Assembly: GCA_976226885.1 (NCBI GenBank) | Contig: OZ320322.1 | Coordinates: 63,984,001-64,048,000, forward strand | Origin: Iphione sp. A-MEVVRFRX5 | Taxonomy: Eukaryota | Direction of reading: 5' to 3' | DNA: 64,000 nucleotides | In this document: positions 28,586 through 49,763 of the stretch, in pieces | How the letters are laid out: each line of letters starts with the position of its first letter | Numbering within the stretch: the stretch's first letter is position 1 | Made by a program: the position numbers and the translations under genes | Notes under the pieces: model-generated | What the model saw: only the letters and a program-made list of their open reading frames with translations | Told to the model about the DNA's origin: nothing | Databases searched by the model: none

Positions 28586-29400
28586 CGAGGGTCTTGGTCC
28601 AAACGTCAACTGGCGCAAATGTCAACAGGTCCAAACGTCAACACTTTAGTCCAAATGTCAACACCTACTGGTCCAAACATCAACTGCCTCTATCAACTCC
28701 CACTGTCCCTGCTACAAAATAGTTATTTTGGCCGTTGTGCGTAACATCATCAATGGCCGACTATAGTGACTGTCATTGTGCGTAAAAATCTTACTTGGTG
28801 AGTGTTGACCTGTCTGTAATTAATGTTTATTGTCAGTGATTGTCAGTGATTTAAACCTGAAATACGATGTCTGGGCTCCTCTCACCCAACATCATTCATT
28901 AGCCATTAAAAATTCTAAAGCCTGGCAATTCTCTAAGTTGAGTTGCTTCTTTGATTGTGAATCCAGAGATAGTCAGGAGTCAGAGCAAAAGCATATTAAT
29001 ATCAAATTTCAACAACAATGCATAGGTGTCATCACGCTGCATTAACCCTTTGACGGTGCGTAGTGCAATGACGCATTCCCGTGGTCCGGGCGGGTAGTAT
29101 GTGGTAGTGTGTCAACGCATTCCCATCCGGACGGCGAGTATTGCATTTATGCATTATATTGATCCTATACGGTCAGTGCTACGGTTGCGCCATGCCTGAG
29201 GATATACCTAGCTAACATGATTACCTTTTGCCATTTGACTTCTAGGGGGACATCTCCTCAGCACTCCCTGCCCTGGCTGTTGCAAAGGAACTCAGCACTA
29301 CCCAGTTGATGTTTAGACCAGTAACCATTGACGTTTGGACCAAATAGTTGATGTTTAGACCAGTTGACGTTTGGACTAGTTGACATTTGGACCTACACTC
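28586..29400. mobile_element. Non-autonomous element with inverted arrays of ggtccaaacgtcaac at both ends (MITE/foldback-like)
   Basis: Left arm has ggtccaaa(c/t)gtcaac repeats (28596-28690); right arm has gttga(c/t)gtttggacc repeats (29305-29393); tcggccgc occurs at 28578 and 29414. Confidence 0.6.
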
Positions 29401-29712
29401 ACCACCGACATACTCGGCCGCTAATCAAGTCGGCTGCCCCTCTCTATTTCTCTCACCCTCCTTCTCACACAGGGGGAGCCAGGGACTACCCAATAACCTA
29501 TAACTACTATTTAATTTCCATCTTTCACATACAAGCTGACAATATGATGTTTTTTGTTATAAAAAGAGTATTTATGTTCATTTTAAAGCTTTTCCACTGT
29601 ATTTCAAGTAAACAATAATGAATTATACAGAGTAAATAAAATGTCTTCTTATAGTTAGAACTACATGTACGTTTAATTTCAGTTTCTGGTGTTTTTCGGC
29701 TGGACTAAACCC

Positions 29713-30870: not shown

Positions 30871-31851
30871 TCAAACAAAAAGATTACAGTCAGATACAAA
30901 CAATTTGTCACTATCAACATCAATATACTTGAAAACACAGTTGGTTGACCAACCTCCTCTGTATTTGATCTCATGTAAGGTTACACCCCTTGATGCTAGA
31001 AAAGTTGCCCCTCCCCTACGAAAGGAGTGTGATGTAATGCCACTCAAACCAGCATTTTTACACGCCAAATTCAATCTCTCACGAAAACAATTATAATCTA
31101 GAACATGACACGTCGAGCCTACCCTGTACGAGAATACTAAGTCATCTCTAACACCACGACTCTTAATGCGCCAAGCTTTTAAAAGTGTGACCACACAAAA
31201 TATTCTTGAAGGACAAAAACCTATCGGAATTACAACACTTTTTGAAGGATCTGTGAACGTCTTACCACGAGATAAACAAAGTAGCAAGCCTTTATCAACA
31301 AACTTGATATCCTTCCAACGTACCCCCACATTGGTAGTGTACATCTCCTTCCTCAAAAGAAAACGAAAAGCACACAATGAGGCACACCAAACCATGAAAT
31401 CCTGAATGATTCCAAGATCAAAGCATCGACGCAACACCCTCAAATCGTTTAAACCTATGGCTTTGGCCTGCTTGGCGGGGAAATTCCTTGAACGCTTAAT
31501 CCCCCTCAAAACTTCCTCAACTAGAAAATTACCTTCCACCTTCAGTGGCTGACCAAAATATTTCGAAAAATAAACAACTGTTGATAAATACATCCTTATC
31601 GATGTGAAGCACTTGTCTCTTGCCAGAAAGGTGAGGTAAAGACACAGCTGGACGATGCCACATGGTAGAGGACTGTACCCGGCTTGCTTACAAAACCTCT
31701 TGTAGCATCTCCATTGGCACCAGCGAGTCTTCCAGGTATTCTCTGCTGCCGACCTCTGCCTGATCGCACTCATCTCCTGACCCAAGGCCCGACGTAAACC
31801 TGCAAACAACAGACAATGACTCACCACAACAGCAATCTCTAATCCACTCAT
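30871..31851 (-). CDS. Ngaro ORF3 tyrosine recombinase (true start probably the in-frame Met of MSAIRQRS)
   Basis: LLRKE (catalytic R), SRGKT (K), SHSFRRGGAT (HxxR), GGW, FKY (catalytic Y); overlaps the 3' end of ORF2. Confidence 0.95.
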   Translation of the reverse strand: MSGLEIAVVVSHCLLFAGLRRALGQEMSAIRQRSAAENTWKTRWCQWRCYKRFCKQAGYSPLPCGIVQLCLYLTFLARDKCFTSIRMYLSTVVYFSKYFGQPLKVEGNFLVEEVLRGIKRSRNFPAKQAKAIGLNDLRVLRRCFDLGIIQDFMVWCASLCAFRFLLRKEMYTTNVGVRWKDIKFVDKGLLLCLSRGKTFTDPSKSVVIPIGFCPSRIFCVVTLLKAWRIKSRGVRDDLVFSYRVGSTCHVLDYNCFRERLNLACKNAGLSGITSHSFRRGGATFLASRGVTLHEIKYRGGWSTNCVFKYIDVDSDKLFVSDCNLFV

Positions 31852-33733
31852 TCTGCCCTAAGGTGACTAAAGCCTTCCTACTATAACCTCTGGACAATGC
31901 ATCTGCCACCACGTTCTCTTCACTGGCAACATAGACCACCTTCAAATAAACATTATACACACTACATGTCCAAAATACCTCCTTCAGCCAATCCATGCAC
32001 AACAAATTCGAACTCTGACCGGAACGGAGCATGAACATCACACACATGTTGTCGGTCACCACCTTGATCATACGATTCCGTAGCAGACCACACCACCTTC
32101 TCAATGCCACCATCACCGCCCAGAGTTCTTTGACATTAATATGAAGATCACCCGTCACTAAAACTGGTCCAGGCTCCATATGATGATCGAAACGATCCAA
32201 CTCCCATGGCTCCTTCTTCCACTTCCCAAAAAACCAGTCATCCGCACACCAGCCGCCGAAGCCTTTGCTTGAGGAGTCAGTCGTGATACATGCACTTGCC
32301 TCCCGACTGTTGATAATCTTTTTCTTCCCATTGAAAAAGTCCATGAACACAATCCACCATCTAAGGTCTGCCCTAACATCATCGGGTACCTCTCTCTTCT
32401 GAGAACCGCTCCTGAACCCATTTAACCAACTATAAGCCCTCCTGGAGTACGTCCTCCCACCTTTGACTACAGTTGCACAATGAGCAAGTAGACCACAAAG
32501 CCTCTCAACCAACTTCTTCTTGACCTTGCTCATAGCCAACACCTCTGATATAGCTTCCTTACATTTCTGCACTTTATCCGGGGGCAACCTTAGCTCCATC
32601 TCCACCGAGTCAATATCTATCCCTAAGAACCTACAATTAGTGCTCGGTAGAGATACCTTGTTAAGAGCCACTCTAAATCCAAAGGACTCTATCACATCAA
32701 TCATGCATTCACCATAAGTTTTGCATTCATCATAACTATCACCCACCACGATGAAATCATCCAGATAATTTATCACTTTCGCTCCACAACGTCTAACACA
32801 CTCCAACCTCAAGCAGTCAGAAATCCTCGAGAATATGTAAGGGGCGCACCGCAACCCAAAACACAGGCTGTTGTTCACATAAAATTTCCTCATTTCACCT
32901 GCCCCCCATGCAAAACCTTGATAAGTACGATGCTCAGGCTTCACAGACACACTCCGATAAGCACTCCGAATATCAATCACCATCATGTGTTCGCCTCCTT
33001 TCAACATCTCCCCCACGTCATCTACTGTATTATAATGAAATGCTTGGTGAGTGGATGTCATATAATTATTAATGCCAGATCTCAATGGCATGGAGCAGTC
33101 GGTTATGGGCCTCAGAGACCCATCTGATTTCGCTACCCCTCCCAACGCATTAACACATTTAGGTCTACTCTTGCTCTCCGATATTACACCAGCACATAAC
33201 TCCTCTTCGACCCTCCTAGACATTTCGTCATAAAAAGACCCTTCTGTTATGGACTTGTAATTTTCACAGTCGTATTCTGTATCACAGTCTTCATCTACTA
33301 TAGAAAAACCTTCTGTAATACCATTCCACAAAAATCTTTTCTCACTCTCTTTCATCTCATTTACACATATAGCGTAAATACAACGACATGGGCGAAGATC
33401 TACAACAACACCGCCTAGTACATAACAGCACTCACAGATACCCTTTATACATCTTTCAAAAATTTTGATTTCAAATCTGGAAACTGGAGAGTAAATTGTT
33501 AATAAATAACCATCATCATTGTTCGACTCGACAACTACATCGTCCCTCAAAAACGAGTCAGTTAATACGTCAATGTACTTATCGTGTCCGCAGACTGTCT
33601 CTCCCTCTTGGACGTTGCTCTCACAAGAAGAACCAACAACAATCACATTTCCTGGGGTATCACTTTCCCGAGGTGAATCATCTGAGCTGACCGCCCCCAT
33701 GTTGTCATTAGATAAAACAAATCTATCTGACAA
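31688..33733 (-). CDS. Ngaro ORF2 reverse transcriptase / RNase H, 681 aa
   Basis: LRPITDCS, IDIRSAYRSV, LCFGLRCAPYIF, NYLDDF; RNase H residues TTDSS, INVKELWAV, TDN, NVVADALSR. Confidence 0.95.
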   Translation of the reverse strand: MSDRFVLSNDNMGAVSSDDSPRESDTPGNVIVVGSSCESNVQEGETVCGHDKYIDVLTDSFLRDDVVVESNNDDGYLLTIYSPVSRFEIKIFERCIKGICECCYVLGGVVVDLRPCRCIYAICVNEMKESEKRFLWNGITEGFSIVDEDCDTEYDCENYKSITEGSFYDEMSRRVEEELCAGVISESKSRPKCVNALGGVAKSDGSLRPITDCSMPLRSGINNYMTSTHQAFHYNTVDDVGEMLKGGEHMMVIDIRSAYRSVSVKPEHRTYQGFAWGAGEMRKFYVNNSLCFGLRCAPYIFSRISDCLRLECVRRCGAKVINYLDDFIVVGDSYDECKTYGECMIDVIESFGFRVALNKVSLPSTNCRFLGIDIDSVEMELRLPPDKVQKCKEAISEVLAMSKVKKKLVERLCGLLAHCATVVKGGRTYSRRAYSWLNGFRSGSQKREVPDDVRADLRWWIVFMDFFNGKKKIINSREASACITTDSSSKGFGGWCADDWFFGKWKKEPWELDRFDHHMEPGPVLVTGDLHINVKELWAVMVALRRWCGLLRNRMIKVVTDNMCVMFMLRSGQSSNLLCMDWLKEVFWTCSVYNVYLKVVYVASEENVVADALSRGYSRKALVTLGQNEWIRDCCCGESLSVVCRFTSGLGSGDECDQAEVGSREYLEDSLVPMEMLQEVL

Positions 33734-33787
33734 CTCGATTACAAATACGCCGTCAACGGCCCGCTCATCCTCACCTCTGACGTCATG

Positions 33788-34639
33788 TCACTGTTGTTTT
33801 GACGTATTTTTGGCCCTCGCTACTCTGTCGCCATCTGTAGACTTGGAACTGAAGCAATCGCTGGCTCTGTGCCCACCCACTCCACAGCTCATACAGGAGT
33901 GTTTGAACACACAATTCTCCACGTTACATTCACCTGCATTGTACTTGAAACACACACGATCAATTTTCTTAGTTTTCTTCACTTGCTTCTGCTTGCTTAC
34001 GCCATTCGTTGCATCCACGCCTAGGCACTTGTGAACCAATTCAGTATCCCCGTAGCAAAACGCTTTCTCACCCATCTTCGCTGCCTTCTTCCGAACCTCA
34101 CGATCGTACTTGATCAGCGCCTTCGGGGTGTAGACCTTGGTAGCCGCCTTTGACGACAAGAAAGACAAGTGATCCGCATACTCACTCACACTCTTGCCCT
34201 TCTCCAACAATCTCTTGAGCAGACCCATCGAGCCGACCATTAACTGCTCGAATGAGTCGACCTCCTCTGAATCACAAAAACGCAGGATATCATAACGTCT
34301 GAGCTTCTTACCCTGCTTCCTCTTTTGCCTCCTGCTCCTCCTTCTCTCCACGTCTTCAGCATCTGCCTCCGAATCTGAAGAATTCGAACTTGATTCGCTT
34401 GTGGAGTCCAAAATATCATCAGTGGCCTTAGGTTTCTTCTCCTCTGGTGCGCCAGCTTTCGCCACAATCAATGTCTCGATCAACCCTTCCAGCCGATCCA
34501 ACCTGCCACTGACGTCTTCATTCGCTGCTTTTCCGGAAATATCAAAATCTTCGTTTTCAGGCTTCTCAACCACCTCACGACAGTTCTTCCCCACTGGTGG
34601 GGGGTGGTTAACACCGCACTTTTTACAGTACTTGCCCAT
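33788..34639 (-). CDS. Ngaro ORF1 gag-like protein, 283 aa
   Basis: N-terminal CKKCGVNHPPPVGKNC; KYDREVRKK; C-terminal CFKYNAGEC..NCVFKHSCMSC..GHRASDC zinc fingers. Confidence 0.88.
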   Translation of the reverse strand: MGKYCKKCGVNHPPPVGKNCREVVEKPENEDFDISGKAANEDVSGRLDRLEGLIETLIVAKAGAPEEKKPKATDDILDSTSESSSNSSDSEADAEDVERRRSRRQKRKQGKKLRRYDILRFCDSEEVDSFEQLMVGSMGLLKRLLEKGKSVSEYADHLSFLSSKAATKVYTPKALIKYDREVRKKAAKMGEKAFCYGDTELVHKCLGVDATNGVSKQKQVKKTKKIDRVCFKYNAGECNVENCVFKHSCMSCGVGGHRASDCFSSKSTDGDRVARAKNTSKQQ

Positions 34640-34680
34640 AATGTCGAAAAAACCCTGAGCTGATAGGGAACGACCTGATC

Positions 34681-38060: not shown

Positions 38061-38738
38061 CCAGTAGGTGTTGACATTTGGACTAAAGTGTTGATGTTTG
38101 GACCTGTTGACATTTGCGCCAGTTGACGTTTGGACCAAGACCCTCGGCGAGTGTAGGTCCAAATGTCAACTAGTCCAAACGTCAACTGGTCTAAACATCA
38201 ACTATTTGGTCCAAACGTCAATGGTTACTGGTCTAAACGTCAACTGGGTAGTGCTGAGTTCCTTTGCAACAGCCAGGGCAGGGAGTGCTGAGGAGATGTC
38301 CCCCTAGAAGTCAAATGGCAAAAGGTAATCATGTTAGCTAGGTATATCCTCAGGCATGGCGCAACCGTAGCACTGACCGTATAGGATCAATATAATGCAT
38401 AAATGCAATACTCGCCGTCCGGATGGGAATGCGTTGACACACTACCACATACTACCCGCCCGGACCACGGGAATGCATCATTGCACTACGCACCGTCAAA
38501 GGGTTAATGCAGAGTGATGACACCTATGCATTGTTGTTGAAATTTGATATTAATATGCTTTTGCTCTGACTCCTGACTATCTCTGGATTCACAATCAAAG
38601 AAGCAACTCAACTTAGAGAATTGCCAGGCTTTAGAATTTTTAATGGCTAATGAATGATGTTGGGTGAGAGGAGCCCAGACATCGTATTTCAGGTTTAAAT
38701 CACTGACAATCACTGACAATAAACATTAATTACAGACA
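38061..38738. mobile_element. Inverted, circularly permuted copy of the 28.6-29.4 kb element
   Basis: 38061-38148 is the reverse complement of about 28584-28672; 38149-38738 is the reverse complement of 28811-29400; the two arms are joined directly. Confidence 0.85.
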
Positions 38739-39998
38739 TTACAGCCATTGACACTCAACCTGGCCTGTATTGCAACCATTACCACTCCCTCTCCAGTCAC
38801 ATAGCATAATTACAAATCAGAAAATACCACTTTACATTTACACATCACATATGTGCCAACAGTAACTCATCCCCCTGAAGTCCTGTACTAAAATTACATA
38901 AACTGGTACACTCTCTCCATCTCCACTCACACTTGGCTTGTATTACACAGTATCTGCATGTCATTAAAATCAAAAAACATTGTCACTCCATTGTACGTGT
39001 TGCTGAACCTATTTTACCAATGTGTGTATATCAACAGGGGACACGGTTCGACAAAAAGTTTAAATGCAGAAAACGCAGCACATATCCATATAGTAGTCCA
39101 TTTCAGGGGGAAAGCCAATTTGTATAATAGAAGTCAGTATGGCCCAACAGTTCACTTGGGGAGAGCCTGTGTGTGTAGGCTGGTCATGCTCACAAAATGG
39201 GTGTAGGTGCTCCTAAGACTGATACTGTCGGGACAGACACCTTGTATTACTCGCTAGGTACCACATTGGAAACTTGTGCCACCTCCCACTGGAGCACAGC
39301 ACTAGCCACTGCCACTTAGTGAGTGGCGCTGAAGTCACTAATATGTTCATCAACTCCCCAGTGAATGGCACCACATGATAACTGCCTAAGTGATTGGGAC
39401 TTGTTTGTATATTCCTTCCTGCAGCCCAGCAGCCATTTATAAGATGTCACAGGTGATACGTAAGCATTCACGATGGATTTACTTGCTGATGATGCAACCC
39501 TTGAAATGATACATAATCCTTTTTAATGAACAAAACTCATTCCACAACATTCAATATGCAATAAAATGTCCATCTAAAGAATATATACTGCACAATCAGG
39601 AAGGGCGGATGAATCAAACATTTAATAGTGGTGACTAAGGGCTAATCCCCAAAAAAAATTCAATCATGTTTAAGCAAATGTTTTTAAATTGTATGTGAAT
39701 GCACAGAATTGTCATACAAATATCCATTCAATTTCAAATTGTATTAAACTCTTCAGAATTTTATGTGAACCTCAAGAAATGAAAACCACTTACAACAATC
39801 ATACTTTTCAAAATATCTGTCAGCTTTGCTGAGTGGGAATGAGAGGTGATGAAATGGCAATGAGTATGGTGACAATGTTGCTAGACCTGATCAGAGAGAC
39901 ATACTAGAAGGTGAGTTTAGACTTTTATTGTTGAATAAAGATGAACACACCAACAAAGCACAAGAGTGGAGTTTAATGTAGGCTTTATTCATAATAAT

Positions 39999-40035
39999 CC
40001 CGACGTTTCGGCGCGTTGTTGGCCTTCTTCAGGGG
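39999..40035 (-). ncRNA. Minimal type I hammerhead ribozyme-like motif (Penelope LTR type)
   Basis: CCC-CUGAAGA-A-GGC-caacaacgc-GCC-GAAAC-GUC-GGG: core boxes, 3-bp stems I and II, palindromic ACGU stem III; AAUAAA about 10 nt downstream. Confidence 0.65.
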
Positions 40036-40422
40036 TAAATAGGATGACTATCTGTTTACTAAAGTACTCTTTTGGGCTGGCTGGGGCCCTCTGTTACTAT
40101 AAATAGAATTACCTAGGTTTGCTTTAGTTTAAAGTGGTTTCAAGGTTACATATACATGAAATAACAAGCCATCTCTGGTTTAAACGGGATAAGTGAATAT
40201 GTCTTTAAAAAATCGATCCATCGCTGGAAATACATAATTTCTAACGTCCTAAGAGTGTAAAGTCCTTGGTTAATATATATCACAGGAGCCAGAATCATGT
40301 AATTAATTTTAAAAAGTTCAATCACAGTTGGCGATCACGGTTGAGTATCACAGTTAAAATGAATCAATGGTGTATGGCAGTGGCTGATAGCTGCACTAGG
40401 ATATATACACACATAGAATAGA

Positions 40423-41647
40423 TTACTTTTTAGGCTTCATGAGGCCTAACCTAATCATCTCGTGCTTCATGACACGCCCGACATCCTGGTTCAATTTCTG
40501 AATAATAAGCCAGTGGTCGTATAGAATTTCAGCAGTTGGGATCATCCCAGAGATCGCAGGTATGTTTGCACGCACGTCAGTCCTGTGTTCCTGTCGATTA
40601 ACAGGGGTCGGCACGTACTCAGGCACCGAATGGTCCGGTCTCGTGGACCGGTTTGTAGGGACGTATTCCGCGACACGGTCAGTCTTTAGTTGCACGATGC
40701 GTTTACTATCCCCTGCGCCCCCATTCATGCAATATGTGGGGCGATGTGATGGTTGTGGTCGCTGGACTTGTGTTGTCTGGGAGGGTCGTTGGTTCATCAA
40801 AACACCAGGTTTTGTCACCCCCTGCCTATCCACGGGTGGCATGGGGCGACAGTTCTGGGTGTTCAGTCTTTTTGATATGCCACCCTTCGAGTTGAGTGGC
40901 AGGAGTGGGCGCGATGTTTGGTCCTTAACGTTTTTGAAACGAGCTGCACTAGTGCCTTCGTCATTGTCACTGGATGAATCAGAACTGACAGTTAAGTCCT
41001 CCTTCAGTTGTTTGTCAGTTTCAACCTCGCTGTCGGATGAATCAGAGATGATGATGCGTCGTCTCTTGGTCTTGTTAGCTGTCGTCAGCTGTTCGTCAGC
41101 CTGCGTGGTGGGTGCTCGGGGGTCCGAGGATGTGGTTAGTTGTGTGTCGGCCGGCTGGTCTGTTTTGTTGGCAGTCACTGAGTGTTCCTCGTCGGAACTA
41201 CGCTTCCTTTTCTTGAGTATCTGCACTAACGGGTGCAGATCCCTCTGCGTACGACGGGCCGTCGTGTCGATGAGTGGAAGTACAGGGTCTTGCATGGGTG
41301 CTGGTACTTGTGTTCTTGCCTCTGGTCTTGACTTCGATGGTGGGGTTGTCCTTTTGTTGGCCGCGGCGTTTGAGACGGCGACCGGCGTCCCTGTAATCAA
41401 GCGCCGAGCTTATAATACGGAATTTAACATTCTCTGGGGTTATCGTTGGATTGCGCCAGGGCTTCTTACATTTTGGTCGAGGCTTAGCTTTTACCATATG
41501 TTGAATGTTTTTAGTTACAGTGAATTCGAAACCATGTGAGTTTCTTTGGTGGCGTCGTAAATTGCGTTTGTTAACATAAGAGCGGTTACAAGAGCACACA
41601 TATTTACCGATGTACTTGCTGAGTTGGTCATCCGGATGGTTCGGGTG
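40423..41647 (-). pseudogene. Truncated, frame-split ORF: CxC-x12-H-x4-H zinc finger followed by a long Pro/Thr/Ser/acidic low-complexity region with basic NLS-like patches
   Basis: Frame A is open from the insertion edge 41647 (YVCSCNRSYVNKRNLRRHQRNSH) to 41198; frame B is open from about 41409 to 40423 (LKKRKRSS, KTKRRRII, ...MIRLGLMKPKK*). Confidence 0.55.
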
Positions 41648-42679
41648 TTAGACTTTTATTGCCAAAAACTAAATATAAAAATACACAAAACTCTATATGT
41701 GTTCTAGATTTTTATATTGGACCTTCTCCCTCTAGCTCGAAGCAATGTACATCACCCGAGCACAGATAGGAGCCAGCAAAGGCCATGCTCAAGCCCATCA
41801 ATTAAATGAGTATGGATGCTGCCCACAATGTCATATTGTTTGGTTCAATTTGGGAAGAGTTAATTGTCAAAGGGATATGCACACAATGGATTTGCTGCAT
41901 CACACAGCTCATGTAGAGGTCACAGTGGCTGCACAGTCTGAATGTGCTTCACATACACACAAACACACACAAATACTGTATCATTTTTTCTCTGTTTGTT
42001 ACACCTACTCCAACTTACACACACTAGTATACACCAAAATGTGCACATAGTTTTGCATGTATGTGAAAATATCATACTTGCATGTTTGCTCCAAGAAATG
42101 TAAACATGTTATGATGCAAGCATGAAGCTGCACTCTCTGGAGTTATGAGGAACACCGCCTTCTGAATGGAAGAAATACATGCCGTTGATTTATATATGTA
42201 CAACTGGTTGTTATATGTACATGTATACAAGACAATCAGAACAATTTTCAAAAAATACAATTACAATCAATAAACCAAAAAGACCAACTAACAAATTATG
42301 TTTGCAATAAACTCATAAATCCCATTAGAATGAAAAGTGATTCATGTTCTGAAACTACTCACTTAAATATAAATCCGTGATTTCATCGTATTTATTTCCG
42401 AAGAACACCTTTACATCACTGATTCACCTATGGGTGAGGTGTTCAATGCAAGTAAAGCAGCCCATGATACTGTTGTAGTTTTGTGCGAGTGGAGGAAGAA
42501 CTCTACAACACTGAATCACCTATGGTTCAGATGATCGATATGAGTACAGCAATCCTCGATTCCATTCTTTTTTTATTAGAGTAGATGGATAACTGTACAG
42601 TGCTGAATAAACAATGGTTCAGATGATCAACACATGGGAAGCAGCTCTACAAATTAACAACTAATTTCCAATGCACAAT

Positions 42680-48296: not shown

Positions 48297-49763
48297 CAGT
48301 GGAACCTCTTCACAGCGGACATCAATGGGACTATAGTAGTCGCCATCCATGACTTCTTGTTTGTCCTTCAGGTGACTGGTAGCTTTGCAGGGTCCAGGTT
48401 ATTGAAACACCTGGGCTTCAGGGCCTTGCCAATGACCAGGGTCTTTTCAAAGTCCCCAGTCATGTTGCAGCACAGACAGATGGTCAGCCTCTCCTTGGCT
48501 TTCCTTCCTCCTGTTGCATCAGAACCCTTCACAGAGAGGGTCCTGTCAGGCAAGGCCCTGAAGAACACCCCAGTTTCATCTACATCGTAGATGTCCCTTG
48601 GGTGGTAGGGCTCTAGGAGCTGAGGAAGTTTGTCCAGCCATTCCTCAACAACCTCATCCTGAACTGCTCCTCTTTCACCTGACACCCTCATCTCTGCAAT
48701 GTTGTGTCTTGCCTTGAAACAACAAAACCAGCCATTTAAAGCCTTGAAGTTTGCCAACTCCAGCTGGGCTACCTCCAGGGCCTCAGCCTGTATCATAGGC
48801 CCTTATACAGGGATGTTGAGTGACCTGAGCCTAGAAAACCATGTGAACATGATACAGCCCAGGGTGCTCTTCACAGGCTTCGGACATCTCTTCTTGGCAT
48901 GGGGGTTGGTTGTAGTCTCATACTCCTCCAAGATTTCTGCTTTTCTCTTCATTATGGATGCAACCTGTGTCTTTCCAATCTTCCAGATTTTTGCTATCTG
49001 TCTGCAATTTCTGCCCTCAGCAGACTGAATCAGCTTGACCTTGTCTCTTAAAGACAGCATCAACCTCTTGTCAGGCATGTTTGAAGGGTCCGGTGACAGG
49101 TGAAGTGGTAGAGTGAAGAGCAGGGGCAGACTGAAGGCAGGCAGCTGTAGAGGAAAGGGCTGGCAGCAGCAAACTGAAGGGGCCAACAGTAGAGGGAAGT
49201 GCAGCAGCGGCAGACTGAAGGATGGCAGGCAGCAGGAGACAGTACGGTGGCAGCGGGAGAAGGTACAATGGCAACGGGAGAAGGTACAATGGCAGCAGGA
49301 GAAGGTATGACGTGGTCAGCAGCAGAAGAGTGAATGGTGCCAGTGGCCTGCTGTAGGGATTTATGTATGCATCAGGGTGTGAGGGAAGCCTCCTCCAGGG
49401 TGTCGAGACGAGGTCACGTTTCTCCCAGGTGTGAGGGTGCATCAAAGAAGTGGATGAGAGCGGTTCCTCCAGGGTGTGGGGATAAGGTTGTGCTGTCCTG
49501 AGGTGAGGGTCCATCAAAGATAGAGGGAAGAGCGGCAGCAGCAGAGTGAAGGGCGCCAACGGGAGAGAGAGTGTCCGCTGTTGACCCAGTAAAATTTGGG
49601 TTAGGGACCATCCAGGGACTGTTCAGAGGCTGTCCCTGAGTATCCACTGTGTCTGAGCAGTATTAAACATGATAAAGAGGGTTTTTGTTTGGGACTATCC
49701 TTTAGGCATCCATTGTAGGGGTTGTCCGCTGTGCCTTGGCGTCTGTTGTCAAGGTCTCCACTG
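48297..49763 (-). mobile_element. Tigger/pogo (Tc1-mariner) DNA transposon, internally deleted, with dead transposase
   Basis: TA|CAGTGGA termini at both ends with a shared CACAGCGGACA motif; psq/CENP-B HTH and DDE_1 (IYDVDETGVFFRALP, KERLTICLCCN) with in-frame stops at 48803 and 48368; ORF cut just after KKSWM. Confidence 0.88.

Follow-up and report, generated by a model that had tools for sequence, protein, structure and literature searches.

The stretch analyzed here, referred to as the window, comprises 64,000 nucleotides of Iphione sp. A-MEVVRFRX5 (contig OZ320322.1, positions 63,984,001 to 64,048,000 of the forward strand; assembly GCA_976226885.1), and on its reverse strand we found an insertion that matches the 3' part of a Penelope-like element (PLE) and carries the remains of a zinc finger gene (Table 1). 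An earlier reading made from the letters alone (the sequence-only reading) had noted an exact 14-bp direct repeat around 1717 bp of CpG-rich DNA with no reverse transcriptase (RT) or clear endonuclease (EN), and our measurements agree with it. The 14-bp pair is unique in the window among exact 14-mer pairs 1.5 to 2 kb apart, the rough chance of a 14-mer match at these boundaries is about 2e-5, the observed/expected CpG ratio is 0.93 in the insert versus 0.35 to 0.37 in its flanks, and an open reading frame (ORF) and Pfam check of the insert found neither RT nor endonuclease. The same reading had described one ORF open to the 5' edge. Such a frame is present (frame A, 41647-41198, 149 amino acids [aa]), but it is not alone, as a second frame shifted by +1 overlaps it (frame B, 41409-40423, 328 aa, zero Pfam matches). 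An antisense frame of 345 aa (40502-41539), which has no Pfam match and is often broken in relatives, was set aside as a shadow frame.

We also found the hammerhead ribozyme motif and AATAAA that had been reported in the same orientation at the 3' end of the insert, where a poly-A tail is absent. The hammerhead was called from its conserved core and from 59 distinct hammerhead strings of related copies, and an Rfam search returned no hammerhead at E ≤ 1. An extra A precedes helix II in 59/59 of these strings, while a C-G pair at 15.2/16.2 is seen in 45/59 and a 3-bp helix I in 49/59. The window hammerhead lacks helix III, and a dimer is predicted to be needed for its activity. The strings of the relatives fit the published form of the minimal PLE hammerhead (Cervera and de la Pena 2014, PMC4209133) with no notable difference, helices I and II here being mostly 3 bp each; in this and all later comparisons, statements about published systems refer to the accessible portions of the cited papers.

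A search of the same genome with the insert gave 42 matches, of which the best long ones are 75% identical to it. The 92 to 99% identical matches that we examined are 3' stubs of about 100 nt, and no full-length member of the window copy's own subfamily was found in the assembly. In contrast to the window copy, its relatives extend unbroken past the 5' edge into the rest of a first zinc finger (finger 1), its ATG, an intergenic stretch of about 150 to 190 nt, and an ORF for RT with a GIY-YIG endonuclease (RT-EN). Fifteen full-length copies of 5084 to 5203 bp have direct, hammerhead-bearing pseudo-long terminal repeats (pLTRs) of 215 to 323 bp with 92 to 100% identity, and a flanking duplication of at least 10 bp is present in 10/15. 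Their order is pLTR, ORF1 (about 180 aa), RT-EN in the -1 frame, ORF3, ORF4, 3' untranslated region (UTR), and pLTR. For example, in L082 (L-numbers are labels of related loci in our genome searches) Pfam places RVT_1 (E 1.5e-10) and GIY-YIG (E 7e-6) in one ORF; a CX2-5CxxC linker is found by pattern, and a C-terminal CCHH, missed by the strict pattern, is seen by eye. At 16 of 18 junctions, ORF1 overlaps an RT frame shifted by -1 and both frames are conserved; in the other two copies, small deletions have fused them. By eye, neither a splice site nor a canonical slippery heptamer is conserved in the overlap (L082 oriented positions 2400-2650 and the relatives). Between the 5' pLTR and ORF1, the full-length copies have two conserved hairpin-like units (ATCCT...GGGAT and ATCCC...GGATCT); an apparent donor of a 5'-UTR intron is not conserved, and this candidate was rejected.

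Thus, the suggestion that the insert is the 3' part of a larger ribozyme-bearing element was borne out by the genome-wide check for longer masters, which have upstream RT, GIY-YIG, and a second hammerhead in this same genome. Compared with them, most of finger 1 is missing from the window insertion, as are the start codon of ORF3, the putative internal promoter, RT-EN, ORF1, and the 5' pLTR. Judged from these alignments, the insertion derives by 5' truncation from an autonomous PLE of about 5.1 kb and is dead. It is presumably silent, with its promoter and start codon lost. Short relatives point to how such copies arise. Ten were examined, mostly 3' stubs of about 100 nt that are 86 to 99% identical to the window end and flanked by 9- to 15-bp repeats. 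From the truncation, the duplication, and the signatures of these stubs, we infer that the window copy is an ordinary 5'-truncated product of target-primed reverse transcription. The short sister stubs terminate in ...TTCAACA, so about 2 bp of the 14-bp repeat probably reflect microhomology to the element's own 3' terminus. Nine of the ten short sister insertions (L134-L143) start within a few bases of the hammerhead 5' arm, and the tenth starts about 30 nt earlier, which suggests that reverse transcription often stalls at this arm. Directly before the target duplication lies a donor-like AAG/GTGAGT (39908-39916, forward strand), so that a host intron may begin where the insertion lies; beside it, no host exon was confirmed.

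Table 1. Features of the Penelope-like insertion in the window (slashes mark splice junctions).
Feature	Positions	Strand	Basis or remark
5'-truncated Penelope-like insertion	39931..41647	-	alignment to full-length relatives
Target-site duplication, element 5' side	41648..41661	.	exact 14-mer
ORF3 remnant, unspliced frame, from about codon 37 of a two-C2H2-finger protein	41198..41647	-	ORF, alignment
Coding intron, 217 nt, G/GTAAAT ... TTACAG/G, retained in window copy	41391..41607	-	invariant codons, exact loss in relatives
Second C2H2 finger, C-x-C-x12-H-x4-H, within intron	41534..41602	-	Pfam zf-C2H2 E 0.007 (weak), alignment, model
ORF4 (exon 2), in frame with finger 1 after splicing	40423..41390	-	disordered, basic/acidic motifs, C-terminal helical hairpin
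pLTR copy of motif GCCCAAA-N4-TACYTYAG	40059..40077	-	full-length elements carry second copy upstream of ORF3
Minimal type-I hammerhead motif of 3' pLTR	39999..40035	-	conserved core; no helix III
3' tail, AATAAA at 39984-39989 inside predicted terminal hairpin	39932..39991	-	fold prediction
Target-site duplication, element 3' side	39917..39930	.	exact 14-mer; similar AT-rich duplications in relatives

We found that the two overlapping frames are related by an intron. ORF4 has no conserved start codon, and an acceptor, YTTAYAG/G, lies about 217 nt past a donor, G/GTAAAT, in the Gly-Lys codons after finger 1, joining this finger in frame to ORF4. Among 15 subfamily representatives, the codons Gly50 GGT, Lys51 AAA, and Arg121 AGG are each invariant (15/15), while Gly75 varies over all four glycine codons; Tyr120 is either TAC or TAT, giving CAG or TAG acceptors, and far subfamilies have GTAAGC or GTAAGT donors at the identical place. 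Five copies, from five subfamilies, have lost an exact GT-AG segment when compared to a relative: L102 (217 nt, versus L084, 99.1% identical), L188 (217 nt, versus L184, 92.1%), L197 (214 nt, versus L203, 98.3%), L199 (211 nt, versus L087, 88.2%), and L196 (217 nt, versus L091). Two of these came from a first survey, which covered 86 distinct loci having both finger 1 and the end of ORF4, and three from eight targeted extra candidates, of which the other five (L198 and L200-L203) failed, L198 having an unrelated deletion of about 80 nt. Since these five copies lack exactly the GT-AG segment, they argue that the intron of about 217 nt between ORF3 and ORF4 is spliced. In four of them RT-EN sequence is kept upstream, which indicates that the RT-bearing RNA is sometimes spliced prior to reverse transcription, with the intron kept in most copies. 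Ribosomal +1 frameshifting from ORF3 to ORF4 was also considered; the Phe-Arg (FR) codons vary, and this candidate was dropped because exact intron loss makes a frameshift unnecessary. We hold the Penelope-type architecture and the splicing to be very nearly certain.

To ask whether the ORF3/ORF4 cargo is a regular part of these elements, we searched with the last 66 aa of ORF4, which gave 150 scored loci of 783 candidates; among loci picked by ORF3/ORF4 similarity, 43 of 57 have the RT-EN end upstream. Because such loci are preselected for the cargo, we performed the reverse test by endonuclease similarity, taking the top 30 loci (some overlapping the earlier ones) plus 20 lower-ranking ones among 150, with identities as low as 56%. 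ORF4 lies downstream in 50/50 of these loci and ORF3 in 49/50, the sole miss being an intron-less copy. Thus, the cargo is fixed in the sampled PLE clade. In the 15 subfamily representatives, where synonymous sites are saturated (proportion of synonymous differences, pS, 0.8 to 0.9), the ratio of nonsynonymous to synonymous proportions (pN/pS) comes to about 0.25 for each finger and for the C terminus of ORF4 and to 0.5 to 0.7 for the linkers. Between the window copy and L021, the ratio of nonsynonymous to synonymous rates (dN/dS) is 0.12 for ORF3, 0.17 for ORF4, and 0.05 for the last 45 aa of ORF4. These ratios indicate that the cargo is under purifying selection, and since finger 2 is encoded by the intron and is itself under selection, both the spliced and the unspliced products likely matter.

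The structural model of ORF3 has two C2H2 fingers and a disordered tail, and it gave weak fold-library matches to C2H2 arrays (E ≥ 0.026) and one PDB sequence match. ORF4 is modeled as disordered except for short motifs and a confident C-terminal two-helix hairpin, for which the fold search returned generic helical hairpins only (best VIA Z 4.0; no BFVD match at E ≤ 0.001). ORF4 has no Pfam match and no PDB sequence match; word-indexed protein searches with ORF4 alone and with the ORF3 alignment were both negative, and two ESM Atlas searches gave no usable match. An ORF4 profile search identified 24 unnamed homologues at E ≤ 0.001 with the motif order in common. The 20 that we looked up are Logan and ENA assembly sequences, all without a name, and scans of viral and metagenome sequences confirmed no locus for them. 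ORF4 represents a protein family that has no name yet and whose homologues occur in other datasets.

The intergenic stretch suggests how this gene might be expressed. Immediately downstream of the RT stop, the elements conserve TGACGTCA and a second TGACG; GCCCAAA-N4-TACYTYAG comes next, at about 100 nt from the start codon of ORF3. We take TGACGTCA to be a CREB/ATF site and TYAG to be an initiator-like core. The 20-bp motif is shared with the pLTR, where it lies 43 to 45 nt upstream of the hammerhead in 14/15 elements (those where it was located). With a leave-one-out matrix built from the pLTR motifs, the intergenic site ranks first of about 9,200 positions in 14/15 elements and second in one, and the pattern has 314 exact genome matches compared to 4 for a reversed control. 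The motif also differs between two subclades, as the near subclade has GCCCAA at both the pLTR and intergenic sites and the far subclade has GCTC at both in 9/9 scored subfamilies (two further loci were unscorable); the helix of finger 2 differs with the same grouping. These arrangements make it likely that the ORF3 cassette has its own promoter just upstream of its ATG. A DNA target derived from the C2H2 recognition code came out as GAn-Gnn only, which was too weak and was not used.

The cassette is also found outside PLEs. In 8 of 40 loci fetched, ORF3 and ORF4 occur without a PLE RT within 5 kb upstream and without a hammerhead. Seven of the eight belong to an element that has long direct repeats and reaches at least 27 kb in length, while the eighth, L112, has only internal segments in common with it. 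By Pfam, this long terminal repeat (LTR) element encodes a gag knuckle, protease, RT, RNase H, integrase, and Baculo_F. The LTR-borne cassette keeps its splice sites, has the motif in 7/8 copies, and shows dN/dS values of 0.09 to 0.29. In a midpoint-rooted tree of 22 ORF4 rows, the four rows from the LTR element group in a single clade (100/99) whose sister is the PLE subfamily L111 (100/99), and the similarity to L111 begins near the L111 RT stop. The nesting and the point where similarity begins lead us to infer that an env-bearing LTR element captured the cassette from a PLE. The LTR element itself (loci L078-L081 and L112-L115, flanks L118-L133) is large, young, env-bearing, and of the Ty3/gypsy type with several extra ORFs, among them, by eye and with no Pfam match, an antisense SGNH-esterase-like ORF of about 239 aa and a short ORF with a recombinase-like motif.

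We compared these elements with known systems. According to Craig et al. (2021, PMC8557442), canonical endonuclease-bearing (EN+) PLEs have one ORF only. The present clade shares with the Neptune/Nematis type the RT with C-terminal GIY-YIG, the zinc-finger-like CX2-5CxxC linker, pLTRs, hammerheads near the 3' end, a variable target duplication, and intron retention. It differs in having four coding frames, with a separate ORF1 that overlaps RT in the -1 frame, a spliced 3' gene with two products, and a putative internal promoter. The 'ORF2' of killifish Neptune is its RT (10.1101/2025.05.22.655539). Multi-ORF PLE relatives appear solely as Terminons in PMC5718144, and as Terminons too in PMC8557442 and PMC5408684. 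Bdelloid LTR elements and Athena PLEs share ORFs (Rodriguez et al. 2017, PMC5408684); common to that system and the present one are multi-ORF PLE relatives and an accessory ORF that occurs in PLEs as well as in LTR retroelements. However, Terminons reach 40 kb and combine an Athena-type RT, which has no endonuclease domain (PMC8557442), with DEDDy, GDSL, coiled-coil, and transmembrane ORFs (PMC5408684), whereas the present element is 5 kb long, EN+ with GIY-YIG in the RT ORF, and interstitial and carries a spliced C2H2 cargo. The LTR carrier resembles the ancient errantiviruses, env-carrying Ty3/gypsy elements of non-insect animals, in its gag, its protease, RT, RNase H, and integrase, and its Baculo_F-type env; the main text of PMC13524379, in its accessible portion, mentions no zinc finger or PLE-derived cassette. 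No EN+ PLE with 3' accessory ORFs was found in an open-access library, with Repbase, subscription journals, and supplements outside the scope of this search. On the same basis, the sequence-only reading was right that the cargo looks like no described family, and the cargo is more elaborate than was first seen. The hammerhead, pLTRs, and truncation are ordinary PLE features. In contrast, an active EN+ clade with a fixed, spliced 3' accessory gene changes the single-ORF picture of endonuclease-bearing Penelope elements, and the five exact intron losses are rare genomic data on PLE intron retention, a long-standing oddity that becomes measurable here.

As a whole, we consider it somewhat more probable than not that the insertion is a truncated copy from a PLE clade with a spliced zinc finger accessory gene that likely has its own promoter and is likely a self-encoded switch. 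For the last part, we lean slightly toward ORF3 and ORF4 acting as a switch of transcription. In this proposal, the cAMP response element (CRE) sites and the shared motif would together act as an internal promoter some 100 nt upstream of the ORF3 start codon, and the unspliced RNA would yield a two-finger protein binding the shared motif at both promoters. From the spliced RNA would come a protein with a single finger, a helical hairpin, and a long, disordered tail rich in motifs; as an adaptor or antagonist, this protein might recruit or block host chromatin or transcription factors, and the splice ratio would set the activity of the element, as Tas and Bet do in foamy viruses. There, the 3' end of the main coding region holds a second promoter for the accessory genes, and intron-retained RNA gives one protein and spliced RNA another (PMC13220597). 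For the present element, the two products are suggested by the five intron-loss copies and the selection on finger 2, the internal promoter is putative and read from sequence motifs only, and binding to and transactivation of both promoters are proposed, the shared motif and one concerted change bearing on them indirectly. The likeness is an analogy only, as the element class is another, the fingers here are C2H2, and no sequence or fold similarity was found. A wider proposal, in which this is an undescribed, widespread lineage of complex PLEs with an independently evolved foamy-like unit with an internal promoter, a product that reads a clade-specific motif at both promoters, a spliced isoform engaging the silencing machinery of the host, and a portable module captured and kept by an LTR element, is one that we offer tentatively, at somewhat below even chances.

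Several observations weigh against the switch. The linker between the fingers is about 13 aa and finger 2 begins with C-x-C, and canonical tandem DNA-binding fingers differ in both; the conserved 125 aa of ORF3 contain no evident activation domain; and much the same picture would be expected if the sites descended from a duplicated core promoter that host factors read. The joint shift of motif and finger is essentially one evolutionary contrast and is therefore suggestive, not a demonstration of co-evolution. On the splicing side, Asn34 AAC is also invariant (15/15) without an evident splice signal, possibly reflecting a splicing enhancer or chance. In addition, the rest of the LTR element, LTRs included, has a best motif score of at most 12.1 versus 20.7 to 21.7 at the cassette (7/8 copies), and selection on a cassette whose carrier has no strong motif match elsewhere points to a benefit other than activating that carrier through the shared motif. 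This retention suggests a generally useful function, possibly counter-silencing, and it speaks for the main rival view, that the accessory proteins are general anti-silencing or host-manipulating factors, with the fingers tethering the ORF4 tail to chromatin or RNA and the pair opposing host repression to the advantage of whichever retroelement has them. The presence of the cassette in every sampled member of a large active clade fits this view, as does a mostly disordered ORF4 with short conserved motifs, a combination typical of adaptor proteins. Nevertheless, we regard it as rather unlikely, since it leaves the joint change of the pLTR and intergenic motifs unexplained and since searches of ESM Atlas, of fold libraries, and of PDB sequences found no resemblance to any known silencing antagonist. 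Switching and anti-silencing are compatible, as each isoform could do one job.

C2H2 fingers can also bind RNA, and the pLTR motif lies close upstream of the hammerhead, so the fingers might instead bind element RNA or cDNA as a gag-like chaperone or targeting factor, the motif being an RNA or cDNA signal. We think this improbable, because the element already has a separate conserved ORF1, the second motif copy stands between the CRE sites and the ATG in a promoter-like layout, and the cassette is retained in an LTR element that encodes a gag itself. The sequence-only reading had also offered two alternatives, a non-autonomous coding retrozyme and a captured zinc finger gene of the host that a PLE mobilized in trans; the window copy has no RT and its subfamily has no full-length member in the assembly, which would suit either. 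Both options fail, however: the ORFs belong integrally to an autonomous PLE clade and are conserved in it, members of this clade run unbroken from the ORF3 start through the intergenic stretch into RT-EN, and ordinary 5' truncation explains the missing RT; there are also no tandem hammerhead units, and protein searches found no named host gene homologue of the cargo. We give these options very little credence. Non-LTR retrozymes are non-coding tandem units (bioRxiv 10.64898/2026.07.22.740005) and share with the window copy a type-I hammerhead and a relation to PLEs. In contrast, the window copy has one hammerhead, coding sequence under selection, and RT-bearing masters, as a truncated autonomous element would. 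As for the favored self-encoded switch, the subclades with differing motifs and finger helices suit a swap experiment on self-encoded regulation.

Elsewhere in the window, three overlapping ORFs at 30871-34678 (reverse strand) resemble, by eye, the gag, RT/RNase H, and tyrosine recombinase of a DIRS-like element. They are enclosed by 593-nt inverted arms (28811-29403 and 38146-38738) that are 99% complementary and 8.7 kb apart. A fragment at 48803-49315 (reverse strand) looks, by eye, like the N terminus of a Tigger/pogo transposase.

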